Assembly (NCBI RefSeq): GCF_004010195.1
Contig: NC_057755.1
Coordinates: 5,149,643-5,213,642, forward strand
Direction of reading: 5' to 3'
Length of the DNA stretch: 64,000 nt
Source of the DNA: Chiloscyllium plagiosum
Lineage: Eukaryota
A program made the translations under genes and the position numbers. The notes under the pieces were generated by a model. That model had not been told where the DNA came from and did not search any database. It saw only the letters and a program-made list of their open reading frames with translations. The stretch's first letter is position 1. Each line of letters opens with the position of its first letter. Shown piece after piece: positions 12,479 through 64,000 of this stretch.

Positions 12479-12889
12479 GTATGAAACTACGGAAACTTCG
12501 GCAACAATGCCCACATTCAGTCTAATAGAAGAGTTACATTTCAGTCAATGAGTGAAATGTACTTGTGAAAAGTCAAGGCAGTTCCCACCTTAAATACTGA
12601 TGGACAGCTCTGAGACATACGTTCTCACTCAGAATAAACTGTCTCGATTCTTCATCAATTGAAGTAATTTGTGGGATGGATCTCATGGTGTATGAGTGGA
12701 CAGCATTATTGCTGGCAGATTCCAGATTCTGCTTTTGTTGTTGCATTATGATGTATGAACAGCAACGCTCCTCCATATTTGTGATTAAAATTGATAATTT
12801 AATTAAGTTGTTTTTTTTTACAGAAATCTGAAAAAAACAGCAACAAAGCCGATCAATTCTGTAACTCGACCTTCTGAAGGATCTTCCAC

Positions 12890-15389
12890 GCTGTATAAGG
12901 CAGCGTCTCTGTGAATGCATCAGCTCAGAGTTTTAAACAAAGAGCTTGTCAACTGCCTGAACGGACAGATCACCGCAAACGGAGATTAGTGTTAATCGGC
13001 TGCTGATTTGCTCTCTGTCTTTACCATTTGAACAATAATATTTCCAGCTCACTGAATGGTCAGCCTTACCCCGACGCTGGAACTTTGATAGTAATTCACT
13101 GAGCAGCATTCTCGGTACAATTCTCCACTGATTGACGCTCCAAATTTCACGGCTGCTGCAGCATTTTCTGATCTCAGTGTTCTGTCAGATTTGCTGGTTT
13201 CTTGTGATTTGAAGATATGAGAAGGTATCATGCCAGTTAGTTCTGAGGAAGGATCACTGGAATCGAAACGTTTACCCTGCTTTCCCTCTCACAGTCGTTG
13301 CCAGTCCAGCTGAGCAATTGCTGATTTTGTTATGCAGATGAGGCCAGTTTTCGGGAGAATGTCAAAGGTTAAGAAATGATCTGAGCGTTCTCCTGCAAAA
13401 TACTACCAAGCAAAGTCAGAGCAGATCGAGATAAACTATTTCCACTGGTTCGAGATTCTACGACAAGTAGAGTTTGAGAATTCGGGTCCACTACGTTCAG
13501 AAGAGATGTTAGGAAACGCATTGTCACACAAAGGGTGGGAAAGGATCGGAAGTCTCTTCTGCCGAAGGCAGTGGATGCCGGATCAGTCATTAATTTGAAA
13601 TATGAGGTAGACTTTATTGTGTTAAGAAAAGCAACAGAGGTATATAATTTTGGTTCCCCTCCTGGAATGCTCTCCTCCTCACCTTGTCTGTTCAGGGAGT
13701 TCTAATCTTGACAGATTTCCCACTTGATCCCTGCACATCGATACATTTGTCACGTACAGATTTGTAAATTATCAGTGTAAATATCACAGCAATGCTGGCA
13801 CTCACACTTGTCACCGAGAGAACCTTGCCTAAGCTCTGTCGTGCTGCACTTGAGGAAGACACATAGAGTAGTCATATTTGAAATCAAATGTACGTTCTGA
13901 TTACCGGTGTCCTGAATAAAATCCAAAAAGTAAAAAGAAAACTGCGGGTGCTGTAAATTGGAAAAGTAAACAGAATTCTCTGGAAAATCTCTGCTGATTT
14001 GGGTTAACGTTTCGGATCTGGTTCTGACGAAGGGTTACTGGACCTGAAACATTAACAGTGATTTATCTTGACTGATGCTGCCAGATCTGCTGAGCTTTTC
14101 CAAATAATTCTGATTTTGCTTTTGACCTGATTTCTGTTGCGGTTGCTGCTCTGATCAGGATTTGGGCCAATGCAGGAGATGACTTGAATCACGAAGTAGG
14201 GGACAGTCTGGTTCATTGACAGCACAATCGCCAGTCGTATGAATAGTTAGTTGTGAGATTGATAATGGAGTTCACCATCTGCCTGATTTGGACCTGAGAA
14301 ATGTAGGAATCTACTGAAATAGTAAAATTGCAACCAAACAAAATTGTAGACTTGCTTCTGCACTCCTAAAAGGGGCGTGAGCTCAATCTCTGGTTACACT
14401 CTGTAATCTCATGAGTTATTGTCTTGGAGGACAATGTGAGGATGGTGTGGAAGTCTTAAAATTCAAGCTCACTCAAATCCAATCACTTGCACTGACAGCT
14501 GCCGATCTGCTGGTTATTATCACTGATATTATACTAACGTGTTTTCGCTTTTATTATTACACACGGTCTTTCCTGGACACTAGTCCAGTGAGTAGTGTTA
14601 TTGGGGCCTTGTTTCGTGCAGCAAAGGACTGTTCTGTCGGTTCACTGTCACTTTCTCCTTTGACCGATTTATGACCTTCTGCTGTCAGAAGCTGTAAAAG
14701 ATATTGCACTGAGAAAACTGCGACATTGGTTCAAGCAACATCTTGCACCCTGTTCTGTTTGAGAAATGTCCCCTTCTGCTTTGCATATGAACCTTGCGTG
14801 ACAATCAACAATGTGCCATTCTACTGTGAAACAAAGTCAAGCTACAATACTGAGATATGGTGGGTGGCATTAGATTCGCTTGATGTGGTTTTAACCGCTT
14901 TACTGCCATTCGCTTTCATTCTCTTGCTCAACACTGTGACACTTAGACACATTTTCACGATCCCCCCAGACCTCCCCTTCACTGAGGACGAACGATAAGT
15001 TCTCAGCAAAGGCCTACCACGGACGCATTTTAGTGACAAGTCGAGTCTGGAAGAGACTGAAGGGTGCGAGCCAGAGATAGAATTGCAGAGACCCAAAGAT
15101 GGACAGCAGAATGAAATCTATGATTTTTCTCCTCACCATATCGGGAATTTTCGTCCTCCTGTACTTAACTAATGTTGCAGATTTATTATGTTATGTCATT
15201 CAAGGAATCAGTCCTGATGATTTCCTGCCCTTTCTGAATCACTTTGGTATTATTGGTTTCATGCTTTAGATGTGAAGTTGTTGCACAAACACATTTACTT
15301 ATGCAACAGCATCGTCTCGGTTCAGAGTGAAGATCACTCATGCAGTAACATACCTGTTTACAAGAATTCATTGTGATATGAACAAATAA
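12890..15389 (+). pseudogene. GPR139-like pseudogene, inverted paralog of gene A
   Basis: Exon-2 remnant at ~14485-15389 (LTAADLLVIITDIILT..RSFLDTSPV..; YEPCVTINNVPFYCETKSSYNTEIWWVALDSLDVVLTALLPF; ends MNK* like gene A). It has a frameshift near 14638 (TGG lost a base), stops, and an insertion at 14956-15020. Promoter and intron start are retained, but coding exon 1 is absent at ~12985. Confidence 0.9.
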
Positions 15390-16329
15390 AACTTCTCAGT
15401 GATGCAACAGGAGGGTTGTATTTTTTTTTTCCAGACCTCCGAATGAGTTTTCAAAATTCACTCTGGAATATGGGCATCGCGGTCTGGGTCAACATTTATT
15501 ACCCACCCCAACGTGCCCTCTCTTGCGAAGTTGGTGGTGAGCTGCTTTCTTGAAATGCTGCAGTGCTGTAGGTAGACCCACAATGTTGATAGGGAGAAAA
15601 TTCTTGCAACTTGACGCTGCAATAGTCAGTCATGGCGATGGTGAGTGGCACAGAGGGGAATTTACAGTGGTGTGGTGTTCACATGTTACTGCTGCCCTTG
15701 CCCTTCGAGACGGAAGTAGTCTTGGGTTCAGAATTGCCGTCTAAGGATATTTGCAGAGTACCTGCACTGCGTCGCGTAGACAGTATGCACCGCTGCCCCT
15801 GTGTGTCTGTGGTGGAAGGAGGGGATGTTTGTGGATGTGGGCCCCATCAAGTGGAGATGCTTTGCCTTGGATGATTTCGAGTTTCATGAATATTATTGGA
15901 GCTGCCCCTATTCAGGGCAAATGGAAAGTATGTATTCACACTCTTGACAGAGGCCACTTATTCCAGCGCAGAGCGAGAGTGAGCTGTGAACCTGTGGATA
16001 ACTCATCGTGGCACAAGCCAAAGAAATTGTCCAGGGAAATACAATTTCCCACTGGATTCTTACTTTTAACTTCTATAAATTTCAACCAAAATCAATGACT
16101 TACGAGGTACAAAATGAAACTAAATAAAATGTTTTTTTGTGTTTGTGCCCTACAATGAAATGCATAGGTTAAGAGTAGAAGTTAAGGGTACGAACATTAT
16201 CAGTATCAATCAGGGCCCATGGTGTTAGATGTAAAGTGCTCGCATGGCTAGATGATTGGCTGTCTGACAGAAAGCAGAGAGTTGGAGTAAAAGGTCCTTC
16301 TCAGGATGGTAGCTGGTGAGTAGTGAGTT

Positions 16330-19090: not shown

Positions 19091-19169
19091 TTCTGGTTGT
19101 ATTTTCCGGTTCTGAGTTCGATTCCAGGGGTCCACAAGGTTCACTGTTGCGATCACCACGTTTCATTCT

Positions 19170-27712: not shown

Positions 27713-27715
27713 GAG

Positions 27716-28432: not shown

Positions 28433-28439
28433 AGTTTGG

Positions 28440-30465: not shown

Positions 30466-31240
30466 TTGAGGATCTGGATGTAGGTTTGGGCGCTGAGCTG
30501 GAAGGTTCATTTTCAGAAGTTTCGTCACCATACTAGGAAACATCATCAGTCAGCCTCTAGATGAAGAACCGCTGATGATTCTTGCTTTTTATTTATATGT
30601 GCGGTTTCTTTGGGTTGGTGGTGTCATTTGCTGTGTCGATGTCATTTCCAATCGAGATGTCATTTCCTGTTTTTGTTTCCTCTCAGGGTTCATAAATGGA
30701 GTCCAATCAATGTGTTCATTGATAGAATTCCGGTTGGAACGCCATGTTTCTAGGAATTCCCGTACATGTCTCTGCTTGGCTTGTCCTAGGATGTATGTGT
30801 TGTCGCAGTCGAAGTGGTAGCCTTCCTTATCTGTGTGTCAGGATACTAGACAGACAGTGTCATGTCATTTTTTGGCTAGTTGATTTCATATGTCCTGGTG
30901 GCTAGTTTTCTGCCCGTTTGTTCAATATCGTGTTGTTACAGTTCTTGTACGGTATTTTGGAAAATACATTAATTTTGTTTTGTTGTCTGTATAAGGATTT
31001 CATATGTCCTGGTGGCTAGTTTTCTGCCCGTTTGTTCAATATCGTGTTTGTTACAGTTCTTGTACGGTATTTTGGAAAATACATTAATTTTGTTTTGTTG
31101 TCTGTATAAGGGTCTTTCAAGTTCGTTAGCTGCTATTTTAGTGTGTTGGTAAACTACCGTGATGCCAAGGGGTCTGAGTAGTCTAGCAGTCGTTTCCGAG
31201 ATTTCTTTGATGTAGGGGAGAATGGCTGGGCTTCTGGACG
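30466..31240 (-). mobile_element. Penelope-like element 3' part (GIY-YIG region and pLTR)
   Basis: The minus strand reads NVFSKIPYKNC..HFDCDNTYILGQAKQRHVREFLETW..INEHIDW. Hammerhead core ctgatga tgtttcc..gtgac gaaa at 30551-30520. Confidence 0.85.
30882..31110. repeat. Near-perfect 114-bp tandem duplication
   Basis: gatttcatatgtcctggtggctag...tctgtataag starts at 30882 and again at 30996. The copies differ by a 1-nt indel. Confidence 0.95.
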
Positions 31241-39906: not shown

Positions 39907-40808
39907 TTATTTATTCATAATGCAAGGAATTTTTGTAACCAGGTATTTCACTGAATTGCTGATCTTCGCTCTAAACCTGGACAATGTTGCTGCATAAATG
40001 AATGTGTTTGTGCAACAGCTTAGGTTCTGCAGCATGTAACCGATAATACTGAGATGATTCATAAAAGGCGTGTAAGTGTCAGGATCGATTCCTTGAGTGA
40101 CACCATATACGAAGTCTGCAACAGCGATTAACCACAGGAGGATGAAGCTTCCAGAGATGGTGAAGAGCAGAATCACAGACTTCCTTCTGCTCTCCATCTC
40201 TGGGTCTCTACAATTCTCTCCTTTGCTCTCACCCTTCAGTCTCTTCCGGACTCTACTTGTCACCAAAATGTGTCTGACTGTCAGGGCATTGAGCAACAGA
40301 ATTAAAGCGAACGGCAGTAAAGGCGTTAAAACAATGTCAAACCAATCTAATGCCACCCACCAAGTCTCAGTATAGTAGCTTGATTTTGTATCACAGTAAA
40401 ATGGCACATTGTTTATTATCATCAAAGGTTCATATTCAAAATAGAAGCGGATGTTTTTGAAACACAACAGGATGCAAGTTGTTCCTAGAACTATAGTCGC
40501 AGTTTTCTTAGTGCAATATTTTGTTTTCAGCTTCTGATAGCAAATGGTCACAAATCGGTCAAAGGAGAAAGTAACGGTGAACCAGACAGAGCAGTCAGTG
40601 GCAGCACGGGCCAGGACCTCAGTAACAATACACACAGGAGTGATGTCCAGGAAAGAACGAGGGTAATAATTAAAGCGAGAACTCGTCAGTATAATACCAG
40701 TGAAAATTACCATCAGATCGGCAGCGGCCATAACCACCAGGTAGCGAGTCGTGCAAGGGGTAACACCACATTTCCCCTGGGAAAGGATAATGATCGCCAG
40801 CAAGTTAA
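39907..40808 (-). CDS. GPR139-like class A GPCR gene A, coding exon 2 (TM1-TM7; spliced protein 322 aa)
   Basis: Pyrimidine-rich acceptor tcttttttatttatgttcacag|TT AAC TTG, open to TAA at 39907. Seven hydrophobic segments with YLVVMAAADL (TM2), CSVWFTVTFSFDRFV (TM3, DRF), LTPLLPFALILLLN (TM5), FILLWL (TM6) and SCCTNTFIY..LSRFR (TM7/helix 8). This motif pattern resembles the GPR139/GPR142 group. Confidence 0.92.
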
Positions 40809-41676
40809 CTGTGAACATAAATAAAAAAGACGCTGTGAGTTTCGAGGGAATCAACAAAGAAGTTGACTCCTAAAACCAGCACACCCTGTGAGTGGAATTG
40901 TTTGGGATTGACTGATTCTGAATTTTAAATTTTTTATACTCATCTCAGATAGGCCCCAGCCCAGTTACTCCAGAGATTATGAAATTTAGACACATATTTA
41001 ACTCATTCTCACTCACCGTAGTTAGATGAAGCTTTCAAACTTAATACGAGACACATATTTTTCATAAAACTGAAAGAACCTCACATGTTGTAAAGGGTGA
41101 GAACTCGCTTCCAAAATGGTATGGATGCTGGGTCATTTGTGAATTTTAAATGTGTGAAAGAGTTTCTTTAATTATCCAAAGGAATTGAAGAATAGGCACC
41201 AGAAAATCGGGAGCTGCTGCAAAGCTCAGCAGGTCTGGCAGGATCTGTGAAGAGAAATTACAGTTAACATTTCTGATCCATTCTGAGGAAGGGTCGCGAG
41301 ACCAGAAAAGTTAACTTTGACTTCACTATACATGTTTTGGAAGGCCTGCTGAGCTTTCCAAGGAGAGGTAACGTTTAGGGTCCAGTAACCTTCGTTCAGA
41401 ACTTACTTTCCAGATTTCACTTCATACCTTCAAACCGTATGGAACCGGGACAGATGACAGAACATAGGATCAGAAAAAGTTGCAGCAGCAGTGACGTTGG
41501 GAGTATCTGACAGTGGAGAATTGGTCCGAGAATGCTGCTCAGTTACCTGCTATGATTTGTCCCATATCTTGACAACGCTGACCAGTCAGTGAGCTGGAAA
41601 CGTTACTCTTGAAAAGATAAAACGAGAGAGCATATCAACAGCAGATTAAACAAGTTCAATTGTCATAATGCCATAC

Positions 41677-41743
41677 CAGGGATGCCAATGAGAGCAAGGA
41701 TGGTGCAGAACACTCTCTCCACGTGATCAATCGGTGTAAGCAT
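41677..41743 (-). CDS. GPR139-like GPCR gene A, coding exon 1 (67 nt: MLTPIDHVERVFCTILALIGIP + G)
   Basis: The ATG is at 41743-41741, followed by 22 codons and a phase-1 donor CCT G|gtatgg. It splices in frame to the acceptor at 40808 to give ...IGIP-V-NLLAIIILS (TM1). A TATA-like box lies ~88 nt upstream. Confidence 0.88.
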
Positions 41744-41830
41744 CTTTCTGCGCGATGTGATGTGTCCCTTTAGGCAGCTGACAAGCTCGTTTTTTGAATC
41801 TCTGAGCTGATGTAGTCCCAGAGATGCTGC

Positions 41831-41847
41831 CTTATACTGTGTGGAAG
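41831..41847 (-). promoter_or_regulatory. TATA-like core promoter of gene A (CTTCCACACAGTATAAG)
   Basis: Lies ~88 nt upstream of the ATG. Conserved in the pseudogene (cttccacgctgtataag, 12883-12899) and resembles gene B (cttcccgcagatataaa). Confidence 0.6.
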
Positions 41848-46000: not shown

Positions 46001-46741
46001 ATGCAGCACCTGGGGACATTGACAAAGATGAAGGAGGTCTGCAATGATTTTGAAGGAACGACGTGTTGAAGGAATTATGGAGAACGGACGGGAAAGTGGA
46101 TTTGAGACCAAGGCAAGATCTGCCATGATCAGAGTCAAGGGTGCAGCAGGTTCGAGGGACTCAACGGTCTCCTGCCGCTTCTGGCTCTTGTGTGATTGGT
46201 TCCCAGGTTGCTGAATAGCCCGTGGGTGTGAATAGTTCAAGGGGAAGCAGTTTGCCCCCTTTGTGTTGAAGGAGCTACCTCTGTTCTCTGCAGTAAAAAA
46301 AAGCTCGAGCTTGAAAAGAGAGAGTTTCTTTCAGTACAGCGGTTAATACCTTCCCACAGCACCTCAGAGACTTTGTAACTGTGTATCAGTCACTCTGTAA
46401 CTCCCACAAAAAACTACCATAGCCGGGGAAGAGGGAGGATCAAAGGCCAGCAGATCCTTACCAGCCAAAAGTAATATCCCTTCGGACCGTGCTGACAAGG
46501 ATTAATATGCTCACTTCCCAGTCTTTCCCTCCATCTGCAACATCCATTTTCCTTTGTGTCTTTCTACAGCAGACGATTCTTCAATGGTGTTCTAATGTAT
46601 TTAATGACATTACATATTCTTGGCTCATATTTGCTTGAGTCTAGCTTTTACCTATTCCTAATGGACATTGACTCGTATTCAGGACAGGATCCTGATCTGT
46701 GCATTCTAACAATCTGCGTCTTAATTGTAGCTGCGCTGTGG
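43017..46741 (+). repeat. Old direct segmental duplication, copy 2
   Basis: Collinear with 31871-35098. Carries an extra HE1 SINE at 44483-44790. Confidence 0.85.
44483..44790 (-). mobile_element. HE1-type tRNA-derived SINE
   Basis: Minus-strand head cggcggcacagtggctcagtggtt..gtttgattcc (A/B boxes), central gtgtgaagtttgcaaattctccccgtgtctgcgtgggtttcc, and tail aatctaatctaatc. Confidence 0.9.
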
Positions 46742-46779
46742 GTCTGAAATAGGATCAGGATTGGTACCTGAATCCGCAA

Positions 46780-49745: not shown

Positions 49746-50159
49746 TGCGAGTATGTGTATGCGTGTGTGAGTGTGTGTATGTGTGTCTGTCTGTGCACAT
49801 GTGGTTGTGCTGATGGTGCTGTCATTTTGGATGTTGTCATGTGTTGCAGGGGGACCTCTCTCTCAACCTGAGCGTTTTCACATATCACCACCCCATGTCC
49901 AGATGTGTGGGGACGCCATCAGATGGTGAAAATATATCACTATCAACACAAGGACGTTTGTTTGAATTATTCTGACGCTGTATCCATTGACAGGACGTTT
50001 CTGATTGGTGTGTTGCTGCTTTCTGTTTTCATCCTTTTTAGGTCAAATCTAGTTATTTCTCGTTGTCCAATCGTTCTGTTGCATGCTGTTTTTTCAACGG
50101 TCTGGCTATGGCATGGTGTCTCACACGCTGTGAAAGTAGGTGTCAATATCTGCAAGTAG

Positions 50160-51250
50160 TTTCTCTGCTTTCTGAATATATTCGGTCTTGACCACAAACA
50201 GCAGTACTACAAATCCAACCCAAACTCATGATCAGATACGTGGATGACACATTTTTTATCACGAAGAGAACAGAAATCGAAAAAGCACATAGAATAATCA
50301 ATACCATACTCACAGGCATCAGGATTACGAGAGGGAAGGATACCAACAATCGACTCCCATTCCTGGATGTGATGGCACAAAGAACACAGAACGGTGCACG
50401 CAACACAATAATAGACAGGAAAGCAGCACACACCGACCAGGTCCAGAATTACAACAAAAATAACCAAATACACACAAGTGAGGCTGCATCATGACCCTCT
50501 TCAAAAAGCCTACAACACTTTAGCACTGGCTACCTCTGAAGGGAAGAAAAAGAACACCTCTACAGAGGCTTCACCAAGAACGGATATCTCTGCAACTTCA
50601 ACTACAGACAAACGTAATAAGGACATGCCATGACCAAACTTACTAACCATGCTAACTGACATAGAACAAAAGTCTTGGAACGAACAGCCACACTTTTCTG
50701 ACCAATGGGATTCATGACAGCTCAGACAACAACTCACCAGAACAAAAGATGCTCTCCCCGTCATGTGCAAAACAAACATAATTTACAAGATTCCATGCAA
50801 AGATTGCACGCTCCACCAGAAAGGAGAAGCAGGCAGCAAACTCACAAACCGCATCCCCCAACAGCAATCAGCCACTAAATGCCACGACCAGCTGTCTCTC
50901 GTCGAACGCAGATGAAATGAGCACAAATTCGACTGGAACAACACAAGGATCAAAGGACAAGATAAACAGAGGGCAGCCAGACAATTTCTACAAGCATGGC
51001 ACACATCTACGGACTCCAGCAACAAACACATTGACCTCGACTCAATATACCAGTCACTACAACGAACGACCGAAACCAGCAACTGGAAGCAGCAGTAACG
51101 GAACTAAATACATTCCAGAAGACACAGTACTGCAGCGGTCAGGGCTCCAAAGACTGAACATGTCACCGAGACAGGGGACGAAATATCTGCAAATCGCCTT
51201 CCCAGTTCGGCAAACCACAATATGACAACTGACACCCGAGCGACAAATCT
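50160..51250 (+). mobile_element. Penelope-like element (RT C-terminus, GIY-YIG endonuclease, pLTR with hammerhead-like motif)
   Basis: RYVDDTF..LPFLDV..RKAAHTDQ, then NIIYKIPCKDC and HKFDWNNT. ctgaacatgtcacc..ggggacgaaa at 51153-51183. Confidence 0.9.
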
Positions 51251-51489
51251 TGATTGTTACACACTGCTGGTTGTTTGCGGTGGTGGTGGAGGGATTTACT
51301 CACTGCAGGATTCCTAAAATGAGACATGTTCTAATACCTCCATTCTTAGACGAGATAACTAAAGTTAATTTCAATCTGAGATCAGCCACTCATTGCATTG
51401 AATGGGGGAACAGGCTGGAGTAGCTGAATTCCCTGTTCCTGCTCGCGGTTTGTGTGTTCTTAAAGATGGCTATAATTTTGCTTTTTTAA

Positions 51490-51765
51490 CTTAGATTACT
51501 TACAGTGTTGAAACAGGCCCGTGGGCCCAAAAAGTCCAGAGCAACCCTCCAAAGCACAGCCCACTCAAACCCATTCCCCTACACCTAACACTATGTGCAA
51601 TTTAGCATGGCCAATTCACCTAATCTGCACATTTTGGACTGTGAGAGGAAGCCCACGAAAACACTGAGCGAATGTGCAAATTCCACACAGTCAGTTGCCC
51701 GAGGCGGGAATTGAACGCGGGCCTCTAGCACTGTAAGGCAGCAGTGCTAACCACTGTGCTGCCCA
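51490..51765 (-). mobile_element. HE1-type SINE
   Basis: Head gggcagcacagtggttagcactgctgcc..gttcaattcc and tail gggcctgtttcaacactgtaagtaatctaa. Confidence 0.85.
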
Positions 51766-52064
51766 TTTGCTGTGACTGAGGTCCTTACATTTGCATCGGG
51801 GTTGTGTTTTAGGTTTCTTTTTCGTTGCTGAGACCGCCGCTGTTGTCCCTCCAAAGGGAAGCTCAAATACACCGTGTTGCTGTGGGTCTGGAGTCGCATG
51901 TCGGGAACATCAATAAAAGATGGTAGATGTCTTTCCCTGGACCAGACTGAACGATTAACGAGGTCAGATTTACAAATCATGTGAATGTCATAATCTGCTA
52001 TGGCGGAATTCAAAGCCAATTTTATTCTTTACAAGTTAAGATAGAAAAAAGTAAAGACAAATAA

Positions 52065-52805
52065 CAACACCCTCACCTGCCCTACTGGAACCTTCCACTG
52101 CCACTGCAGGAATTGCAAAATCTGCACCCACTCTCCTCCCTCACCTCCACCCAAGGCCCCAAAGCAGCTTTTATAGCTATGAAAGTTTCACCTGCACTTC
52201 CACACGTCATTTACTGTGTCAGTTGCTCCAAAAGCAGTCTCCTCTATTTTGGGGAGACAGGAGGCCTACCCGCACAGCGCTCTGGAGAACATCTCCGTGA
52301 TTCCCGCACCAACAACCCGACCGCCACATGACCAAACACCTCAGCTGCCCCTCCCACTCTGCCGACGACATTCAGGTCCTGGGCCTACTGTATCATCAAT
52401 CCCTCACCACATGATGCCTGGAGGAAGAAAGCCTCATCTTCTGCCTCGGGATCCTCCAAACACAGAGCATCAATGTGGATTTCACCATTTCCCTCATTCT
52501 CCCACACTCCACCTTACTACAGTTCTAATCTTCCAGCTCAGCACCACCCTCATGACCTGTCCCACATGTCGATCTTCATTCCCACCTAACCACTCTACCC
52601 TTGTCTCCGACATATCACTTTTTATCTCACCTCCATCCACTATCGCACTCTCAGCTATCATCTCCACGTCCCCACACGCCTCCTATTTATGTTCCCACCC
52701 CGAGGCTCCCAGCTTCATTCCTGATGAATCGTTCCTACACAAAACGTCGATTCTCGTGCTTCTCGGATGGTGCCTGAACTGCTGTGTTTTTCCAGCACCA
52801 CACTC
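52065..52805 (+). mobile_element. Penelope-like element remnant (second family): GIY-YIG region and 3' pLTR
   Basis: HVIYCVSCSKSSLLYFGETGGLPAQRSGEHLR (GIY-YIG), followed by attcctgatgaa...aaacgtcgatt...gctgtgtttttccagcaccac. Confidence 0.85.
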
Positions 52806-53467
52806 TCTACATAAATAACAACCATACTAATTACAAACCAACAGCAACAGTGTTGCGTTTGCTGTCATACATAATGTAAACCTTCTTGCTGGTGCTGATC
52901 AGATTGTGAACAGGATATCTTCAACTTCAAGATAAGAAGCAGACTCCCTGAGATCCTTTTATATGTCCACGTGATGAGGTAGATTACAGGCAAAAGACAT
53001 ATAGCAGAAACAAAGTTGACCACAATTGTTTAAAAATTCCAAATATGATGAATTAGTATGGACTGGTCATCAACGATAAATCGTCAATGAAAAAGGAAGC
53101 TGGTGATAATGGCTCAGCAGGAAATGTAGCTGTTGAGCAATTCATCAGTGTCATGTTAGATGAAGAACTCATTCTACAAAGACTGTAGGGACTGTATGTA
53201 GAGAAATCGCCAGGTCCAGATAGGATGCATTCTAGATTGCTGAGAGGTAAAGGAGTTTAATTGTGAGGCCATTTACAGAAATTTTCTCTGTTTCACTGAA
53301 AACAGGATTAATCCCGTCGAATCGGATGATTGTGAATGTGACACTGTTGTTTAAGAGAAAGACAAATGATAACCCAGGAAACTACAGAAGTCTCAGCTTG
53401 ATATCAATACCGGAGAAACAGCTACAGTGCATAATACAGGATAAGCTAAAAATACAGGTCAAGAAAA

Positions 53468-53760
53468 GGGCGGCACAGTGGCTCGGTAGTTAGCACTGCT
53501 GCCTACAGCACCAGGGTCGCAGGCTCGATTCCAGCCTTGGTGACTGTCTTTGTGGAGTTTGCACATTCGCCCTGTTTACTCCGGTTTCTTTCCACAGTCC
53601 AAAGATGTGCAAGTCAGTTGGATTAGCCATACTAAATTGCCCGTAGTGTCAGGTGTATTACTTAGTGGGAAATGGATATGGGTGGGTTACTCTTTGGAGT
53701 GTCGGCGTGGACTAGTTGGGCAAAAGGGCCTGTTTCCATACTGTAGGAAATCTAATCAAA
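53468..53760 (+). mobile_element. HE1-type SINE
   Basis: gggcggcacagtggctcggtagttagcactgctgcc..gctcgattcc, with tail gggcctgtttccatactgtaggaaatctaatc. Confidence 0.9.
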
Positions 53761-53983
53761 AATAGATTAATAGTAGACTGTCAAAAGACTAGCATGGTGG
53801 CTCAGTGGTGAACACTGCTGTCTCCCAGGGCCAGAGATGCGGGTTTGATTCCATCCTCGGGCAACCTCCTGTGTGTAGTTTGCACGTTTTCCCCGTATCT
53901 GTGTGGGTTTCCTCTGGGTGCCCCGCTTTCCTCCCACAGTCCAAAGATGAGTATATTAGGGTGGATTGGTTTTGCTAAATGAT

Positions 53984-54165
53984 TCTGGATCAGTGGTGCT
54001 GGAAGAGCACAGCAATTCAGGCAGCATACTTTATTCCTGATGAAGGGCTTTTGCCTGAAACGTCGATTTCGAAGCTCCTCGGATGCTGCCTGAATTGCTG
54101 TGCTCTTCCAGCACCACTGATCCAAAATCTGGTTTCCAGCATCTGCAGTCATTTTTTTTACCTCG
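53984..54165 (+). mobile_element. Short palindromic PLE-derived insertion with a 13-bp target-site duplication
   Basis: A perfect 42-bp inverted repeat (53986-54027 / 54083-54124) surrounds a hammerhead core. TTTGCTAAATGAT flanks it at 53971-53983 and 54166-54178. Confidence 0.85.
54033..54068 (+). ncRNA. Minimal hammerhead ribozyme motif (PLE type)
   Basis: ATTC-CTGATGA-A-GGGC-TTTT-GCCT-GAAA-CG-TC-GATT. Confidence 0.65.
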
Positions 54166-56414
54166 TTTGCTAAATGATGCCTTTCGTGTTCAGGAATGAG
54201 TAGATCAGGTGCATTCATCAGGGGTTAATATGAGATGATAAGGAATGGGTCTGCGTGATTGCTTTTCAGACTGTTGTTGTGGACTTGTTGTGCCGAATGG
54301 CCTGTTACACCCTGTAGGGATTCTATCAAAGATGTGTCAATGTCTGTCATTTCTGCCCTATGTAATTTCATTTTTAAGCAGGTTGACACAGGCGTTAGAT
54401 GAGGGTCATGCTGTGAATGTGATATGGTTGAACTTTCAGAAAGCGCTTAAAATGGGCCTCATGGCAGTTTGGTTCGTAAATTATACTTGTTTGTTACAGA
54501 TTATACCCTGGCAGCATGGATGAGCAGTTGGCAAAAATATAGGAAACACGGGGTTAGGGGTGTGGATTCGCCATTCTCAGACTGCAGATGAGTTGATAAT
54601 AGCATTCCATGGGGTTTGGTGTTGGAACCCTTGCTTTTTCTGATTTAGATAAATGATTTGGAGATAGTTATGGAGGACGAATTGGCAGATGGCACTAAGC
54701 TGGGAGAATAGTGAATTGCGAAGATGATGGGGGGAAGCGTCAGAGATCAGGAAACACATGACAGCTGAATTTCAATGCAAAGAAATGTGAAGTGATACAT
54801 TTTTGGAGAATAAAGAGAGAGAGACAATACAGGCTGAATAGTACCATCTTGAGGGGAGTACAGGAGCAGAGGAACATCTGGAGTCAAGTGCATAATTCTC
54901 TGGTAGACAGGAGGCAAGTTTTAACAGCTGTTAAGAAGACTTATTAGCTCCTGGCGTTTATGAATAGGGGTAGAAAGTAAAAAATAGCCAGCCAGTGATG
55001 CTACATCTCTACAAACCAATGGTCAGACAACATTTGGGGTAGTATATTCAGTTATAGGCACCTTCGTTAAGCAATGATGTTAAAACCCCAAAAAGAGTTC
55101 AAAGGAGATTCACGAGAATGAGGTCAGGAATGAGGGTTTTTCCGTAAAAGATGAGAGAGGCTGAGCACATTCTCCTTGGAGCAGAGAACATTAAGAGAGT
55201 AAGATATTGTGGTGTTCAAACCTACGAACAATTTTAACTGGGTCAAGAATGATATTCTGTCTCCACGGGCTGGTATGTCAGTAACTCCGCGTCACAATTT
55301 GAAGATTGTAAACAAGGTAGTGAGATGAGGAGAAACGTCTTTGTTCAGACAATTATTTGGATTTGGAGTGCGATGCCTGGGAGAGTGGTGGAGGGAAATT
55401 CCATATGGGATTTCGAAAAAGAGTAGGGTATATATTTCAAAGTGATGAATTTTGAAGGCCAAAAAGAGGGGGTTGGAGAGTGGAACAACCTGGGCAGTTC
55501 TTTCTGGAGCTGGTACAGTCACAATGGGTTCAATACCTCCTTCTGCACTGTAAAGTTCTTTGCTTTTGTTGGAATGTCTGAGGCCCTAAAGAGAACACTT
55601 TTCAAATTAGGCAGACATGATCAGTTGTAACAGTGAGAAACGCAAAATTGATTTATGGAACGTGTTGCCACTGATTTGGTTCCCAGTTCTTTCGCAGAGT
55701 TAAATCTTCAGGGATGCCAACAAGCAGGAAATTATTCATAACTCTTGACTGTGTGGATTATGGAGACGAATGCGCAGGGTCTGAAAATTTTTATAAGTAA
55801 AAGCTCAGTTGTGGGTTTTACAGATATTCTATGGGATTCAGTACCATTCCTTTTTCAATCACTAATCCGGACAATTAGTTAACTGACCTCGGGATATCCA
55901 TGCAGAAATGTACGTGACTATGGGGAAGTGGGCAGTCAACTCGTGCTCTGGCTTCCAGTCTATGACTGTTGATTAAACATTGGCCAACCGTTCATTTCGA
56001 ATTTCCTAATCGATTGAGTCACTGACCCCACTGGAAAAAAAAACGGTTTTTGAAAACGCTCATTTAGGATGCACAAAAAATGTAGCTCATGCCCCAGTAG
56101 TAAGTATTGCAACAATCAGTCAGTAAGGCTGTTTATTCCCAAACATCGCTTCTGTCCCGTTCTGACTCGGCCCTGCATTCCCCGTCACCACCATCCACAA
56201 CTGGTGTAAAGCTCATTTTGTTCATCAGGACACCAATGCCGATGGTGAATCGTTGATGAAGGTTTATGGTAAATGCACAGGAATCACTCGGACTCACTAC
56301 AGGTCTGCGCTCTGGTACCTTTTCTTCTGACATTTATGATGTGACTAGATAATTCTGCAGAAGGTTGGATTGATGCTCGGGCTCCTTTCTCAGAGCTAGT
56401 GCCACAAGAGGCCT

Positions 56415-57313
56415 TTAGCATAATTTCTGTCGATTAATTAACAGAATAATTGGCGTGAACATATATTTCACAGTGCACTGCAAACGGTCTCTGAACTTGG
56501 ATTGAGTTGCCATGTAAATAAAAGTGTTTGTGCAGCAATTGATGTTCTGCAGCAGAAATCCAACGTGTTCAAAGATATAAGATGAATTACCGTGCAAGTA
56601 ATATACAGCGTCAAAGAAATATAAGACATATACAAGCCACAAAAGTATGAAGCTTACGGAAATAGCGAAGAGCAAAATCACAGATTTCAATCTGTTCTGC
56701 ATTTCTGGGTCACTGGGATTATTGCCCTTATTGACACTTCTCAGTCCTCTGCGGACTCGACTTGTCAATAAAATGTGTCTAACTGTCAGTGCGTTGAACA
56801 GTATCATTAACACAAACGGGGGTATTGGCGTTAAAATTGTATTGAATAGATCAAATGCCACCCACGCGGGTTCAGTGTAATAACAAGGCTTTACAGAACA
56901 GAACCATGGTATATTGTCAATTAATTCTTCAGGTTCATATACAAAGTAGAAAGGAATGTTTTTCATTAACAGTAGAATGAACGTAATTGCTAGAATCAAA
57001 GCTGCGGTTTTCTGATTACAATATTTAATTTTCATCTTCTGGCAGCAGATGAATACAAATCGATCAAAGCAGAAAGTGACAGTGAACCAGACTGAACAAT
57101 CTGTGGCTGCACAACTGAGGACACTGAGAATGCTACAGACAGGAGTGATGTCCAAAAAACATAACGGGAAATAATAAAAATTAATTTCTCTCAGTATGAC
57201 CTCGATAATAATGAGCAGTAGATCCGCCACTGCCATAGCGACGAGATAACACGTGATGCAGTTGCTCAGTCCACACTTTCGCCGAGACAAGATTATAATT
57301 GCTATGACATTGA
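56415..57313 (-). CDS. GPR139-like class A GPCR gene B, coding exon 2 (spliced protein 321 aa)
   Basis: Acceptor ttttgtctccccttcttgcag|TC AAT GTC. Intact ORF with YLVAMAVADL, CSVWFTVTFCFDRFV, LTPIPPF, FILLWL and NCCTNTFIY..QSKFR. Clearly paralogous to gene A. The intron 57314-63720 is 6407 nt and full of repeats. Confidence 0.92.
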
Positions 57314-57648
57314 CTGCAAGAAGGGGAGACAAAATTAAAGAAATTAGTCACAAAGGAATTTCTATTCACAAGCCTACATATTTTGTGTTGCCTTTAGCAC
57401 CTATGACTAGAGGCTTAATATAACCAGATATTTAGAAATATTAGTCACAGTTTCAAATCTTCTCAATAGGCTCTGTTTCGGTTATGAACTGTATCAGGAG
57501 AGGAAAGGAGCAGCAGCGTCTCAACATGCAGATAAACATTATGATTAGGTCGGCCTTATTCTAATAATTGTCATATTAAAAACATTTAAGTCACGATAGT
57601 CCCTTCAGATAATGGAGCTGATTTCTTGTTAGAGAAAGATACAATAGA

Positions 57649-57998
57649 GTTGAAACTTTATTGCTGGAACAGCACAGCAGGTCAGGCAGCATCCAGGGAA
57701 CAGGAGATTCGACGTTTCGGGCACAGGCCTTTCTTCAGGAGGGCCTGAAGAAGGGCCTGTGCCCGAAACGTCGAATCTCCTGTGCCCTGGATGCTGCCTG
57801 ACCTGCTGTGCTATAATGGAGCTGATTTCTTGTTAGAGAAAGATACAATAGAGTTGAAACTTCAGGAGGGCCTGAAGAAGGGCCTGTGCCCGAAACGTCG
57901 AATCTCCTGTTCGCTGGATGCTGCCTGACCTGCTGTGCTGTTCCAGCAATAAAGTTTCAACTTTGATCTCCAGCATCTGCAGACCTCACTTTCTCCTC
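57649..57998 (+). mobile_element. Compound palindromic PLE-derived insertion with a 14-bp target-site duplication
   Basis: AAAGATACAATAGA at 57635-57648 and 57999-58012. Contains one inverted and two direct copies of the pLTR/hammerhead segment, plus a duplicated flank. Confidence 0.85.
57745..57776 (+). ncRNA. Minimal hammerhead ribozyme motif (PLE type)
   Basis: CTGAAGA-A-GGGC-CTGT-GCCC-GAAA-CG-TC matches the CUGANGA / stem II / GAAA / NUH core. An identical core lies at 57872-57899 and a near-identical minus-strand copy at 57711-57738. Confidence 0.7.
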
Positions 57999-58003
57999 AA
58001 AGA

Positions 58004-58226
58004 TACAATAGACCCTCCTTACCCGTGGGGGATACATTCCATGACCTACCGCGACAATCCAAAACCACAGATAAGAAGGAACCCATTCATTTAAATGAGA
58101 AATGTACCTTCCTGACAGCCCCCGGTCCCTTGTTCCAGAAGGTTCCCGATAATATGTTTGGGCCGCAGTAAATCACGGGTAACTGAAACCGCAGAAAATG
58201 ATTCTGCAGATATGGGAGTCGCACTC
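58004..58226. mobile_element. Tc1/mariner (Tigger-like) MITE
   Basis: Imperfect terminal inverted repeats ta-caatagaccctccttacccgtgg ... ctgcagatatgggagtcgcactc. About 220 bp and non-coding. Confidence 0.5.
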
Positions 58227-58559
58227 GGCTGGTGGTGATTTAACCTGAGAGCCACTACACCTCAGGGAGGTGGATAGATTGTGAAGGTGAGTCCTTCATG
58301 TTAATCTCAACCCGTGATGGGCATTACACTGCTTCACAAACTACCGTTTCAGCCAACTAAATTAAACCTACACCCAACAATGGCATTCAGTTTTACCTGG
58401 TGTCAAGTTTTCACATTGACCTCTGGGGACTCAAGACACACAGCAAGTGGCAACTAAAGGGAAACAAATTCAGGGTTCTTACCAAACTCTTGAGTGGCAT
58501 GAGGAAATGGGTTGGTGAAGATTCTCAAACGCTTTCTGAATACCATGACGTGTATAAAG

Positions 58560-59170
58560 TCATAGAGTCAGAGAGTTGACACCATAGTAACAGACTCTTC
58601 TTTTCAACACATCCACGCCGACAAAATATCCCAACCCAATCTAGTGACACCCGCCAGCACCCAGCCCATATCCCTCCAAAATCTTCCTATTCGCATTACC
58701 ATCCAGATGCCTTTTATATGTTGCAATTGTGCTAGCCTCCACCACTTCCTCTGTCAGCTCATACCATGCTCTGCGTGAGATAGTTGCCCCTCAGGTCCCT
58801 TTTATATATTTCCTTTCCCACTCAAAACCTACGCCCTCCATTTCCGGACTCTCCTACCACAAGGGGAAAAGTCTTTGGTTATTTATCCGATCCATGTCCC
58901 TCATGATTTTATAAACCTCTCAACGGTCATGCCTCAGCCTCTGACGCTCCAGGGAAAACAGCCATAGCCTCTTCAACATCTCCCTATTGCTAAAACTCTC
59001 CAATATTGGCAACATCCTTGTAAATCTTTTCTGTACCCTTTCAAGGTTCACATCCTTCCGATAAGATGGAGACCAAAATTGCACGCAATATTGCAGGAGT
59101 AGCCGAACCATTGTCCGCTACAGCCCCGATATGACCCCCCCAAAACCTGTACTCAATACTGTGACCAAAA
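58560..59170 (-). mobile_element. CR1 LINE 3' fragment in the intron of gene B
   Basis: VRLLLQYCVQFWSPSYRKDV..LFSLERQRLR. Further CR1 pieces lie at ~59620-60000 (-), 60220-60800 (-) and 61300-61800 (+). Confidence 0.8.
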
Positions 59171-62100
59171 ACATTATCCAACGATTGGAGATCTCTCCCA
59201 TTCCTGGATTGCTGTTAAATTAGTTGCTTCTGGAACAGTCCATTCTTGTTCTGTGACCTTCCTCAGCGACCTGCCAATCAGACTATTGGTCAAAACTGGC
59301 AACCAACATGACTTCCTGAAGGAAAAACTTTCACGTTGAAAAGAATAGTTCCAAGAAAGTTTCGATCCACAGTGTGTGGACAACGTGAGTTTCAGAATTT
59401 CCTGCCAATCCCTGCACAAATAATCAGAAATCAATTTTGATCTGCCAGATACCATCTGTGGACAGAGAGATCGAGTTATAGCCTCAGTTTGATGCATTTT
59501 GTTCAGAATGCAAACCTTTGAAAGGTCCAAATATTTAAAGAAACAGTGAAAGCTAAAAGGTGGATATCAGTTACGTGGGGGCAGGGTGATGAGGAGGCAA
59601 CAGAAGGAAAGTAAGACAAAAATATTAGGACCAGGTTTTGTTAATTGATCCCTTCCAGAATGCTCGGCCAAACCCTAATATCAGGGATGGTTACACATTT
59701 CAGTCTCCTTTTCCTGTTTATCCCCACATATCCTTTGGCTCCTTCGACTCCAAGGACTATAATCCAATTTTTCCTGAAATCACACAATGTTTTCATATTG
59801 ACTGCTTTCTCTGCCGCGAATGCCACAGGTTCTGGATGAAGAAATTTCTCCTCATCTCAGTTCCGTATGTCATATTGTGAATCCTTAAATTTGGACCCCT
59901 GGATTCGCTGGAAACGGCCGTTCTGTGTATACCCTGAACAGGCCTGGTGGAATTTTGCAGGGCGCTATGAGACTTTCCTCTCATTCATCTCAACTCTAGC
60001 AAATACACTATTAACTGATTCTGTTATATAGTGGAACGCATCATTGATTTAACAATAAACGTTATCAGGAGTATGAAAAGTCGAATAAATTATGAACGCG
60101 CAGTTGGGCTGAAATGATGGAGAAAATTTTAGAGCAGAGCGATCGGGAGATGGGGCCTTTAGATGATCGGACCTTATGGGAAAATCTCCAGTGCGCGAAA
60201 AGACATTTATACACCCACGTGTGGACCATAGCTATATAGGAACAGGAATAAGCCATTCAGCCCTTCAAGTCTGTTCTAGTATTCAATAGGGTCATGGTTA
60301 ATCTATGGCCTATCTCCATTTATATTTTTTAGCCCATATAACTTCAAAATATTTTTAAATCAAATATATGTTTAATTTAGAACTCTCATTTGTTTTAGAG
60401 AATTCCAAAGCTCTACCACCCATTGTGTGCAGAAGTGTGTCTGAATATCCCTTCTTAATGGTCCGGCCTAATTCAGCCACGATAACATCATCCTAATCCC
60501 GAACGTGGAAGAAGTTTATCTTTATCCATTTCGTCTTTTCCCGTTAATTTCTTGAACACATTGATCAGATCATGCCTTCACCTTCTAAATTCCAGAGGAA
60601 AGGATTAAGTTTGTATAATCTCTCCGCGTAACTGAACCCAGAAGTCCAGGTATTATTCTTGTAAACCTACATTGCACTCCTTCGAAAGACAATCTAACTT
60701 TCCTAACATCTGGTATCCAGATCTGCCTGTAGTGCTCCAAATAGGGTCTAAGCACTCTGTCTACTTGCAACAGCTCACGTCACAACTAGTTCTATGTTTT
60801 CCAATCACTGCCCAGATACACAAGAACCTCTCCACACGCCATCAACATCTACTGCCTCTGGATTAGTTCTTTCCTTGCATATATTCTCTTCCAAAAAATG
60901 GGGTCTGGGATTAAGATCCCAAACAAAAATCTCAGAATGCGACAGGAATTATAAAAAGGCTGATGTCCTCCATTCAGGTTTCTAGTGGAAGTTTGGAGTA
61001 ACCTGACAGCAAGCCTATACATTCGACACAACAGAAGCAACAGATGTTGACTATTGACCATGTAAGACCCTGAGCCAATGGAAAAGATGGGAATTGGAGA
61101 GTGAGCAGTGAATGAAGGAATCAAAGCAAATAAGAGTCAGTTCGTGAGTGGGCCAGTGGAATGCGATAAGTGGTAACTGATAGAGTAATGGCCTTTTGCT
61201 GTCTGTGAGGAGACAATGGGACATAGGAAGAGAAAGGAAATGTTCTGAAGGGATAATATAGGATTTGAAAACGTAAGCCCTCAAAGGTACCTAAAACGTC
61301 ATGACTCCGTATGCCACAATCTCATGAGAGTGGGAATACAAGATTTGCACAGATGAATTAGTGACTGAGGCTTTCGAGGTGCAGTGGAGAAGGATTCATA
61401 TTTCTGCATTATTGGAATCTCTGCTGGAGCAAAGGTCACCTGAACAAGAAGGACGGATTGGACCCGAATTGGAACAGAACCAATATCCTGGTGGGGAGAT
61501 TTGCTCGAGCTGCTCAGGAGGATTTAAACTTAGTAATCGGAGGGGGGAGTGTGAGCAATTTGCTAAGTCTGAGGCTGATACCGTTTAGAAGAGGAGCACA
61601 TCAAATACTGAAGGCAGGAAGGAAAAAAACAAACAACGAGGTAGGACTGATAAACCAAATGTATTTTAGTGCAATGTAAGAAGCCTGACAGGTAAGGCAG
61701 ATGGACTCCGGGCATGACTGGAGACATGGGACAGGGACATCATAGCTATTATAGAAACATGGTTCAAGGGGGTTGGCGTGCAGGACTGGCAGGGTTCTAT
61801 GATTATTTATTAAGCAGTGCTAGTCGTGCTCACAGGACTCTTGGATTTTCAAGGTGGGGTATTCATTACTGTTATTGACTCATATCCATTGTCATTTTAC
61901 CACGATTACATCGACATTGTGTTGCACATCTCCTCGAGTCACCCTAGTCAGTCATCAGAACTGAATGCAACGATATTTGGTCAGTGAATACTTCCAATGA
62001 GTGGCCAATGGGTCAAGTGATCCAGTTAGTGAATGAACTTTGCAAGATTGCACATTGATAGCGGATCTGTGTAATACATGGAGTCCTCTCAATGTAATGA

Positions 62101-62569
62101 TCCACACACAGTATTCTTTTATATTGCATTGGATTCCTCCTTCTTCCGGATTGATCTTCCTACTCAAATCAGAATCGATAGCCCGCAGTGCTGCCAGATA
62201 TCAAAGATTCGGAGAACTGGCTAAGTGCATGAGACACAGGGGTGGTGCTCAGGAAGCAAATGAACGACGTCGTAGCAAAGGGTCAAACATTCAGGATTCA
62301 GGAAAAAAGTTCCGATGTTGGGGATCTAAAACAAAAAAAGACAGAATCTGTGGGAAAAACTGAGCAGGTTTGGCAGCATGTGTGGACGAAGATAAAAGTA
62401 ATTAAAGTTTCAAGCCTAGTGATCCTTGTCCAGAACTCAAAGAAAGATTTCGAAGAAGGGTCACTGACCACAAAACGTTAACTCTGCTTTCTCTCTCTCT
62501 CCACAGATCCTGCGAGACCATCTGAGTTTCTTCACAATTTCTGTTTTTGTTACTTATTTAGGAAGCTTG

Positions 62570-62790
62570 GCTGAGCTAAGTGTTCAACTAGGCTGTGTTG
62601 ACTCAAGAGCTGCAACGAAACACCAAACATGTGGATTCAATTCCCGACATCGGCAGAAGTTACCCTGAAGGGTTCTCCTTCTCACTCTTTCTTCTCACCT
62701 GTTACATAGTTAGCCTTCGGTTGAACCACCTCTAATAATCTCTCTCGTAAGTGAAACAGCAGCCCTGTTATTTGGTGAGAGCATTGTGAC
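62570..62790 (+). mobile_element. Old tRNA-derived SINE (related pieces at 58225-58370 and 35525-35620, minus strand)
   Basis: B-box-like ggattcaattcc followed by gttaccctgaagg..ttctca..ggttgaaccacc. Matches the reverse complement of 58225-58370. Confidence 0.5.
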
Positions 62791-62967
62791 GATTGCTGAA
62801 CATCACAAAAGGATAATAGATCAGTATGTAAATGGCAATCAATCCCTCAACAAGGGCAGTAAGCAAATAAATCTGATATAACTGCAATTGCTGTATACCG
62901 AAAAGTTGAACATAAGTGGCTAGAAACGCTCAGCAGCTCTGGGAGCATCTGTTTAGAGAAATCAGTG

Positions 62968-63586
62968 TGTTATGGACCACGTCAGACACCCTTAAAACAT
63001 TTCAAGAAAGTAGCCCAGACCCTAACTTTGCCAATTATTTTAAGCATGTGAAACATGCATATTCCAGAAGAAATGCAGCTGGTGAAACCAATTAGTTTTG
63101 AACAAAACATACTTTATTCACAAGATTACCGAATGACACACAAAGAAAAGAGAAGAGTGGATGGAATAACTTACCTTTTTTCTAAAGCACAACAGACTAA
63201 CCAAATTAATGATGCTGTTCTGAACACGAGCAACAATCCCCACAAATGGTCCTTAGCACAAAAGTTAAAATCAAATCCAGGGTCTTACAGGAAGTATGTC
63301 AGAGAGAGTGAGGAGGATCAACGTGGAACTGCTTCTTTCGGGTCCAGTAGCATTTTATACAAACCAGACCAAACTAGGGTAAAGCTGACCTGGGAGAACT
63401 GACACTCCCCTTTCTTTGTACAAGTAACTTTTTAAAACTTAAAAGACTTTTCCCTGAGGTATACGTTGGCTATATTCAAATTGGCCCTATAACTCTTCAA
63501 CATAGACTTCATGGATTTTGTGTCCTTCAGAAAATCTCTGAAAAAACAACAAGGATAACGTAACTTAAAGGAGTACCATCGCCACA
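62968..63586 (-). mobile_element. Probable solo LTR inserted into a PLE remnant in the gene B intron
   Basis: TG...CA termini (tgtggcga...cataaca on the minus strand), ~620 bp, flanked on both sides by PLE-tail sequence. Confidence 0.5.
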
Positions 63587-63720
63587 CGGGGAAACATTAA
63601 TTTGAATTCTGGCACAGATGCTGTCTATATTTACAGGTTTTCCAGCAATTTCTGTTTTAGTAAAACCAATAACCAATTCGCAAACAGATTCGCGAACCTT
63701 AATTAGTTATTGTCACTTAC

Positions 63721-63787
63721 CAGGAACACCAATGATGGCAATGAATACGTACACTATTTTAGAAATATTGTGGAATACGTCAAGCAT
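63721..63787 (-). CDS. GPR139-like GPCR gene B, coding exon 1 (67 nt: MLDVFHNISKIVYVFIAIIGVP + G)
   Basis: aaaATG at 63787, 22 codons, then a consensus donor CCT G|gtaagt. Same length and phase as gene A exon 1, and in frame with the acceptor at 57313. TATAAA at 63869-63864. Not in the ORF track. Confidence 0.88.
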
Positions 63788-63863
63788 TTTACTCCGTGAA
63801 TTGGTCTGTAGTGTCGCATCCTAATGCGTTAAAATTGAGGCACGAAATTAATGCAGCCTGGGA

Positions 63864-63880
63864 TTTATATCTGCGGGAAG
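63864..63880 (-). promoter_or_regulatory. TATA box of gene B (CTTCCCGCAGATATAAA)
   Basis: Canonical TATAAA 77 nt upstream of the ATG, at a position equivalent to gene A. A CCAAT lies further upstream (~63941-63945). Confidence 0.6.
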
Positions 63881-64000
63881 TCTATAGAGATTTTAAGGCT
63901 GTAACACGTCTGTGATTTCAATCCAAGAACCAGCATACGTATTGGTTAAAAATATTTAAAAAACTTGAGGATTGGGAGCAGTTTAGTTTTCAGCAAGGGA

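Follow-up and report, generated by a model that had tools for sequence, protein, structure and literature searches.

A large, apparently undescribed family of GPR139-related receptors in the bamboo shark genome, proposed as a chemoreceptor repertoire

Here we describe a G protein-coupled receptor (GPCR) family from the 3.56-Gb genome of the bamboo shark Chiloscyllium plagiosum, starting from one stretch of DNA. The stretch, called the window below, is 64,000 nucleotides (nt) long and covers positions 5,149,643 to 5,213,642 of contig NC_057755.1 (G000:C46:5149643-5213642). It holds two intact receptor genes, B and C, and a pseudogene, A. The family to which they belong is real, large and, as a family, apparently undescribed; it works like a chemoreceptor repertoire and is neither the olfactory receptor (OR) family nor GPR139. 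We give a probability of roughly 0.5 to the reading that it would be a chemosensory repertoire, probably one for external chemosensation.

Genes B and C, both intact, lie on the minus strand; they are class A GPCR genes with two exons that code for 322 and 321 amino acids (ATG at 41743 and 63787, respectively; positions given without a contig are those of the window). Their second exons are 56% identical. In both genes a phase-1 intron with a GT donor and an AG acceptor stands directly before the asparagine of the first transmembrane helix (TM1); the splice sites, here and in the paralogues, are inferred from sequence conservation. A Pfam search with the two genes returns only 7tm_1 above the cut-off. 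The AlphaFold model of the exon-2 product of gene C has seven helices, with a predicted local distance difference test (pLDDT) score of 89, and a fold search with this model places class A receptors on top (Z 23-26). Further, the activation motifs are kept in an alignment of 58 open frames from this genome: D3.49, N7.49 and Y7.53 are present in all 58 paralogues, R3.50 in 56 and W6.48 in 51. The cysteine of TM3 (C3.25) is found in 56 of them and that of extracellular loop 2 (ECL2) in 55, P6.50 in only four, and P7.50 is mostly absent. On these motifs and matches, genes B and C and their family are class A (rhodopsin-like) GPCRs.

Locus A, on the plus strand, is an inverted pseudogene of the B type, with 821 nt that align to B at 80% identity. 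It has kept its promoter block and lost exon 1 together with the first 78 nt of exon 2. The remainder carries deletions of 1 and 2 nt, a 76-nt insertion and three clear in-frame stops, with one more beside a gap. A first-pass annotation of this DNA had claimed three paralogous seven-helix loci, two intact and one a pseudogene, and the reading frames, the 7tm_1 matches and the lesions in A bear this out. Its description of B and C as genes with a 67-nt coding exon 1, a phase-1 intron in TM1, a short N-terminus and a TATA promoter holds as well.

The same architecture recurs in other members of the family. An AG stands at the same phase-1 position in 55 of the 57 testable loci (three of 60 lack the landmark asparagine), and of 45 homologues, annotated or from the window, 33 have a 22-codon first segment. 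Within the 464 kb that surround the window, TATAA occurs 82-106 nt upstream in six of the seven matches to the exon-1 profile. The promoter and exon-1 block has been copied with the genes: the block of B matches seven other places and the block of C four. Since copying takes acceptors, exon 1 and promoters along, the family has spread by DNA duplication, and spread by retroposition is ruled out.

Two single-copy shark relatives, L071 and L072, as well as the amphibian and coelacanth proteins, have the same short N-terminus and TM1 acceptor. Short N-terminus and intron position are therefore ancestral and no sign of an OR-like function. The olfactory-receptor-like architecture that had been proposed for these genes does not stand: an intron interrupts the coding region, and N-terminus and acceptor alike were inherited from a GPR139-related ancestor.

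The family has at least 433 distinct loci in this genome. The number is obtained from five pooled genome searches, in each of which the best ~120-130 of 5,500-8,400 candidates were scored and all scored candidates passed; two single-copy relatives and one short duplicate fragment were dropped. No stop is present in any match for 366 of the 433 loci, which does not prove that the gene is intact. On 33 large contigs there are 327 loci (280 of them stop-free), and another 106 are on 100 small contigs, which may include duplicate haplotypes. In the fifth search 59 of 127 loci were still new, and the Chao estimate of the family size is 720. The 464 kb around the window contain 22 substantial loci, ten with an open exon 2 and 12 broken; the pooled list holds four of these ten, of which two are the queries and the others close paralogues of B. 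Among the tested long low-copy open reading frames (ORFs) in these 464 kb, no other Pfam-recognisable host gene was found.

We also sampled nine cluster-rich contigs systematically, covering 40 of 60 planned stretches of 9 kb. The sample contains six loci, one of them intact, which projects to about 1,070 loci (95% interval 390-2,320) in 67.7 Mb of cluster spans. Pairwise capture-recapture gives 220-7,900, varies with the relatedness of the queries and is not relied on. The size of the family is then at least 433 loci and probably 700-1,100 or more, pseudogenes included.

The genes are clustered, intact and broken copies are mixed, blocks of DNA are duplicated, the genes are under purifying selection, and variability is concentrated in the outer half and the predicted pocket of the receptor. 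For the last of these we used 25 generic class A pocket positions, a Ballesteros-Weinstein set that was placed from the motifs with no bound ligand. Among the 58 paralogues the mean entropy is 2.30 bits at these positions and 1.15 bits at the 127 other positions of TM2, 3, 5, 6 and 7 (p 1e-6). By half, it is 1.84 bits in the outer and 0.81 bits in the inner, cytoplasmic part. When eight variable pocket positions are compared, all 58 paralogues differ. In 21 amphibian orthologues the pattern is the reverse, with 0.03 bits in the pocket and 0.41 in the rest; it is the reversal that can be compared between the two sets, not the absolute values.

The ratio of nonsynonymous to synonymous substitution rates (dN/dS) in 14 close pairs is 0.17-0.49, with a pooled value of 0.28. 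For the inner half of the transmembrane helices the pairwise value is 0.15, and for the pocket it is 0.39. By these ratios, the genes are maintained by purifying selection and the pocket changes fastest. Values well below 1 in all 14 pairs, together with a constraint that differs between inner and outer half, argue against the idea that the expansion is largely a side effect of segmental duplications on small, repeat-rich chromosomes, where a few copies matter and most drift. So do the subfamilies common to sharks and rays and the 366 loci without a stop in the match, even if 12 of the 22 loci near the window and five of the six sampled loci are broken and recent block duplications are visible, as drift would have it. 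We consider this explanation very improbable.

Only three classical OR loci are found in this genome (three matches, 109 of 109 candidates scored), on contigs other than that of the window, in line with the earlier statement that cartilaginous fishes have few classical ORs. Genes B and C have no match to the OR profile (PF13853, 7tm_4). The coding regions of ORs are generally intronless. With 7tm_1 as the only match and a phase-1 intron in TM1 of the coding region, OR membership is ruled out. What the first-pass annotation had put forward as a lineage-expanded, uncharacterised birth-and-death receptor family is supported, on a far larger scale than the window shows, by at least 433 loci, a diversified pocket, purifying selection and no more than three OR loci.

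The 120 best listed relatives of the window receptor proteins, of 1,355 found, are shark proteins. Members of the family are present in sharks, rays and a chimaera, where the member is 49% identical to gene C. Among ten distant matches, the nearest relatives outside the cartilaginous fishes are GPR139-like orphans of salamander, coelacanth, teleosts and amphioxus. In a tree of 36 rows (LG+G4), 22 chondrichthyan and five amphibian or sturgeon rows form one clade, apart from the other GPR139-like subtypes, with a support of 99/100, and a quick tree of 95 rows has the same clade at 91 in the Shimodaira-Hasegawa-like approximate likelihood ratio test (SH-aLRT); both trees lack canonical GPR139, GPR142 and TRHR. 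Shark and ray members interleave in three supported pairs of the smaller tree. This interleaving and the chimaera member indicate that the subfamilies are old and have been maintained. It follows that the expansion began before the split of sharks and rays, and that the lineage is present in chimaeras.

Amphibians, sturgeon and reedfish have about one cluster per species of a GPR139-like orphan, with 66-74% identity. No one-to-one shark copy of the salamander-type gene was found, the best of 119 matches being 37% identical. The shark family is many-to-one co-orthologous with this conserved orphan gene. Among the matches that word-based searches listed there is no amniote member and one remote teleost match (26%), which does not prove a loss. 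In the single-copy gene of amphibians (P0227 with its relatives from amphibians) the pocket is almost invariant and carries the GPR139-like residues F3.33, W6.48, K6.51 and N7.39. The gene is a candidate amino-acid receptor and may offer a handle on the ancestral ligand.

By profile, GPR139 is the nearest characterised relative, and the family would belong to the wider GPR139/GPR142 clade. Among solved structures, gene C matches human GPR139 best, at a weak E of 1.6e-5. When a profile of 46 family sequences is compared with the PDB, GPR139 comes first with 83.6 bits, 26 bits ahead of the next match (57.5). A fold search with the model of gene C does not single it out: GPR139 is ninth, with Z 24.4 against 25.7 for the top row. 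In the structural alignment of GPR139 with this model the identity is 20%. Human and zebrafish GPR139 are 70% identical (PMC7318219; here and below, citations refer to the available parts of each source), compared with ~20% here, and orthology to GPR139 is therefore excluded.

The residues of GPR139 that bind Trp and Phe are F3.33, H5.43, W6.48, R6.51 and N7.38/39 (PMC5430874). In the 58 paralogues F3.33 is found seven times, H5.43 three times, R or K at 6.51 four times, N7.39 three times and W6.48 51 times. No paralogue combines F3.33, W6.48, R/K6.51 and N7.39, and genes B and C keep only W6.48. Direct orthology to GPR139 is ruled out by the E value, the low identity, the number of copies and the binding residues that are not kept. 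The closeness to GPR139 in function that had been suggested is not supported: the match is distant, and the four pocket residues occur together in 0 of 58. Direct orthology to a conserved vertebrate receptor, which the first-pass annotation had raised as a point against its own proposal, is found in part: it holds, as many-to-one, for the orphan of amphibians, sturgeon and reedfish, and does not hold for GPR139. A canonical GPR139 or GPR142 gene was not found in this genome, where the searches fill with members of the expanded family. A search of the genome with PF10324 gave five matches, two of them family members and three, by our own reading, galanin-receptor-like exons.

The invertebrate relatives of GPR139, itself a brain receptor (PMC7318219), are receptors for neuropeptides and sex peptides (PMC8514136). 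This would agree with neural or reproductive expression, the members being diverse peptide or pheromone receptors or labels of cell identity and not environmental sensors. However, endogenous ligands should keep the pocket from changing, as is seen in the single-copy gene of amphibians, and the rapid gain and loss speaks against fixed ligands, so that we regard this as improbable.

We consider external chemosensation most likely because of the scale of the family, its turnover and the very small known olfactory repertoire. The known olfactory receptor genes of cartilaginous fishes number 43.8 on average, although the animals have many olfactory neurons (PMC10869828). GPCRs have been described as relatively scarce in them (PMC8455134), and a shark genome preprint suggests non-traditional mechanisms (10.1101/2025.02.19.638963).

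In this scenario of external chemosensation, a single ancestral orphan receptor, its ligand perhaps an aromatic amino acid or something similar, would have multiplied in cartilaginous fishes. The copies, continually gained and lost, would keep the signalling face and diversify the pocket and so form a panel for different ligands. If the diversity of pockets reflects a diversity of ligands, the pockets would bind different water-borne small molecules or peptides from gene to gene. A shared G protein, by analogy with GPR139 of the Gq/11 type, may couple through the conserved cytoplasmic face. The expressing cells would be external sensory cells, such as olfactory microvillous neurons, taste cells or solitary chemosensory cells, presumably with one or few members per cell. 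Taken further, cartilaginous fishes may have their own main chemoreceptor family of many hundreds, independent of OR, TAAR, V1R, V2R and taste receptors; we put this forward tentatively. As part of the same idea, and with the same reservation, the family may be derived from one GPR139-related gene that was kept in single copy or lost in bony vertebrates.

Several observations weigh against external chemosensation. Immune and somatosensory GPCR families (FPR, MRGPR) have the same clustering and turnover. Only one of the six sampled loci is intact, which projects to about 180 intact genes (4-990), fewer than the searches imply; the low intact share therefore counts against the higher estimates. 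No class of sites has dN/dS above 1 in the pairwise comparison of the 14 close pairs, and positive selection is therefore not established. The shark nose has already been described as based on, or dominated by, V2R (PMC10116579). In the single-cell run X5 (tissue not stated, 2 in 100 read), exon 2 of gene B has a depth of 0.1-0.3 and gene C none. Finally, no GPCR is among the 50 most specific genes of a catshark brain and olfactory library in the available part of PMC11979771, which is weak evidence because single genes of a repertoire are expected to be rare.

Run X5 is one of four RNA runs that were mapped on 38800-58000; repeats dominate, and the runs give no evidence either way. Few reads were placed, no splice joint is among the rows shown for the four runs on this interval, and run X6 has no reads there. 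For exon 2 of gene C no RNA dataset is listed. In run X1 the summed contig depth is ~23,000 on exon 2 of gene B (39441-40722), compared with tens to hundreds on single-copy flanks. This depth hints at many close relatives of B and is not a copy number.

All the repertoire signatures fit equally well with an immune or internal-sensing repertoire, expressed in granulocytes, mast-like cells, gut endocrine cells or sensory ganglia, whose members would detect microbial or endogenous peptides or metabolites in the manner of formyl-peptide receptors and MRGPRs. To our knowledge, hundreds of genes exceeds the known immune GPCR families. An ORF for an immunoglobulin (Ig) V-set domain is present in one sampled stretch (L108) on a cluster-rich contig, but this is one of 40 stretches. 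The ancestral clade is related to peptide receptors (PMC8514136). Further, MAS1-related receptors are absent from cartilaginous fishes (PMC8455134), and such a niche may therefore have been left open. On balance an immune or internal role appears somewhat unlikely.

Public databases already contain proteins of the family, which were named "probable G-protein coupled receptor 139" automatically. In the mostly open-access literature searched for GPR139 in sharks or fish, we found no description of the expansion. The available text of PMC6504862 does not mention sharks, and that of PMC5207463 does not mention a shark expansion. Nor is the expansion described in the available parts of the shark genome papers PMC10620051, PMC8455134, PMC7677710 and 10.1101/2025.02.19.638963. 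The supplements of PMC10116579, PMC10620051 and PMC8455134, as far as available, contain no mention beyond one orthogroup labelled GPR142.

A repertoire of ~44 olfactory receptor genes (PMC10869828) is hard to reconcile with the large olfactory organs of cartilaginous fishes. Hundreds of pocket-diversified receptors under the label "probable GPR139" make the question of shark smell testable with existing tissue and single-cell RNA data. If cartilaginous fishes do have their own main chemoreceptor family, its members would exceed the olfactory receptors known so far by a factor of about ten or more, and the picture of sharks smelling with a few dozen receptors would fall. If the role is immune or internal, the family would still be a very large orphan GPCR expansion, and the single-copy amphibian relative a tractable route to the ancestral ligand.

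The features of the three loci are listed in Table 1.

Table 1. Receptor features of the window, with window positions, strand and supporting evidence.
Feature	Position	Strand	Evidence
Pseudogene A promoter/5' block, TATAAG at 12894-12899, exon 1 deleted directly after	12503..12973	+	73% identity to the block upstream of B, ends 14 nt before the ATG of B
Pseudogene A exon-2 remnant	14493..15389	+	80% nt identity to B; tblastn
Gene B exon 2 (end of TM1 to stop)	39907..40808	-	Open frame; Pfam 7tm_1 E 1.3e-19
Gene B phase-1 intron, 868 nt, GT..AG	40809..41676	-	Acceptor position conserved in 55/57 loci
Gene B coding exon 1, 67 nt (22 codons + 1 nt)	41677..41743	-	Exon-1 profile match
Gene B TATA-like box (TATAA), 93 nt before ATG	41832..41836	-	Sequence; TATAA 82-106 nt upstream in 6/7 exon-1 matches, 464 kb
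Gene C exon 2 (end of TM1 to stop)	56415..57313	-	Open frame; Pfam 7tm_1 E 1.7e-16; AlphaFold model
Gene C phase-1 intron, 6407 nt, GT..AG, repeats inside	57314..63720	-	Sequence
Gene C coding exon 1, 67 nt	63721..63787	-	Exon-1 profile match
Gene C TATA-like box (TATAA), 82 nt before ATG	63865..63869	-	Sequence

Some further observations concern the DNA around these genes. A non-coding block of ~3.2 kb is duplicated downstream of B (31909-35098) and downstream of C (43074-46741) with ~74% identity; its first 0.8 kb is a dispersed repeat, and the block may be the trace of an old unit of tandem duplication. Shortly upstream of the acceptor of gene C, at 57648-57962 in the intron, there are inverted and direct copies of a short interspersed repeat that are 94-98% alike. 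At 30882-31111 a unit of 115 bp is duplicated head to tail with 99% identity, which is either a recent duplication or an assembly artefact.

Outside the window, a two-gene block is present twice on the same contig, ~188 kb apart (G000:C46:5033371-5041721 and 5221258-5229528). It consists of a broken B-type copy and a divergent member that has a stingray protein as its closest neighbour in the tree. Two other ORFs lie within receptor-cluster spans on small contigs: the Ig V-set ORF mentioned above (L108:4059-4529, G000:C44 at ~13.50 Mb) and a C2H2 zinc-finger array of 548 amino acids (L124:6757-8400, G000:C45 at ~11.41 Mb). In the P0166 cluster a bamboo shark member of the family stands beside a "RING-type domain-containing" protein, probably a fused model next to a TRIM-like gene.

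Among known systems, GPR139 and GPR142 are class A orphans activated by L-Trp and L-Phe, while the shark family has hundreds of copies. GPR139 resembles the family in being a two-exon gene (PMC7318219), in keeping W6.48 and in the absence of P7.50, which is mostly absent in the family as well. It differs in the aligned position of TM3, which is not a cysteine; in the family the TM3 cysteine is found in 56 and the ECL2 cysteine in 55 of 58 paralogues. The orphan of amphibians, sturgeon and reedfish (e.g. XP_069092602.1) has an equally short N-terminus and both cysteines, but occurs about once per species and has an almost invariant pocket with F3.33, W6.48, K6.51 and N7.39.

Non-mammalian subtypes of GPR139/142 have been named GPR210A and GPR210B (PMC6504862), and a subtype has been named "Orphan 139-like" (PMC5207463). 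They belong to the same wider clade, in single or few copies, and stand outside the expanded shark clade. The two single-copy shark relatives, which share the TM1 acceptor, appear to belong to two such non-mammalian subtypes. L071 (G000:C26:36600769-36601743) is 63% identical to a coelacanth protein and L072 (G000:C98156:21305-22210) is 45% identical to an anchovy protein.

The srw chemoreceptors of nematodes (PF10324) are an expansion from the same wider peptide-receptor branch. Some sequence clusters near gene C carry PF10324 in 16-74% of their members. However, srw is a separate expansion, and only two family loci are among the five PF10324 matches in this genome. With OR, TAAR, V1R, T2R, FPR and MRGPR the shark family has in common the clusters, the pseudogenes, the hypervariable pocket, the conserved cytoplasmic face and the short N-terminus. 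It differs from OR and the other repertoires in its independent origin from the GPR139/142 branch, and from OR in the intron inside the coding region.

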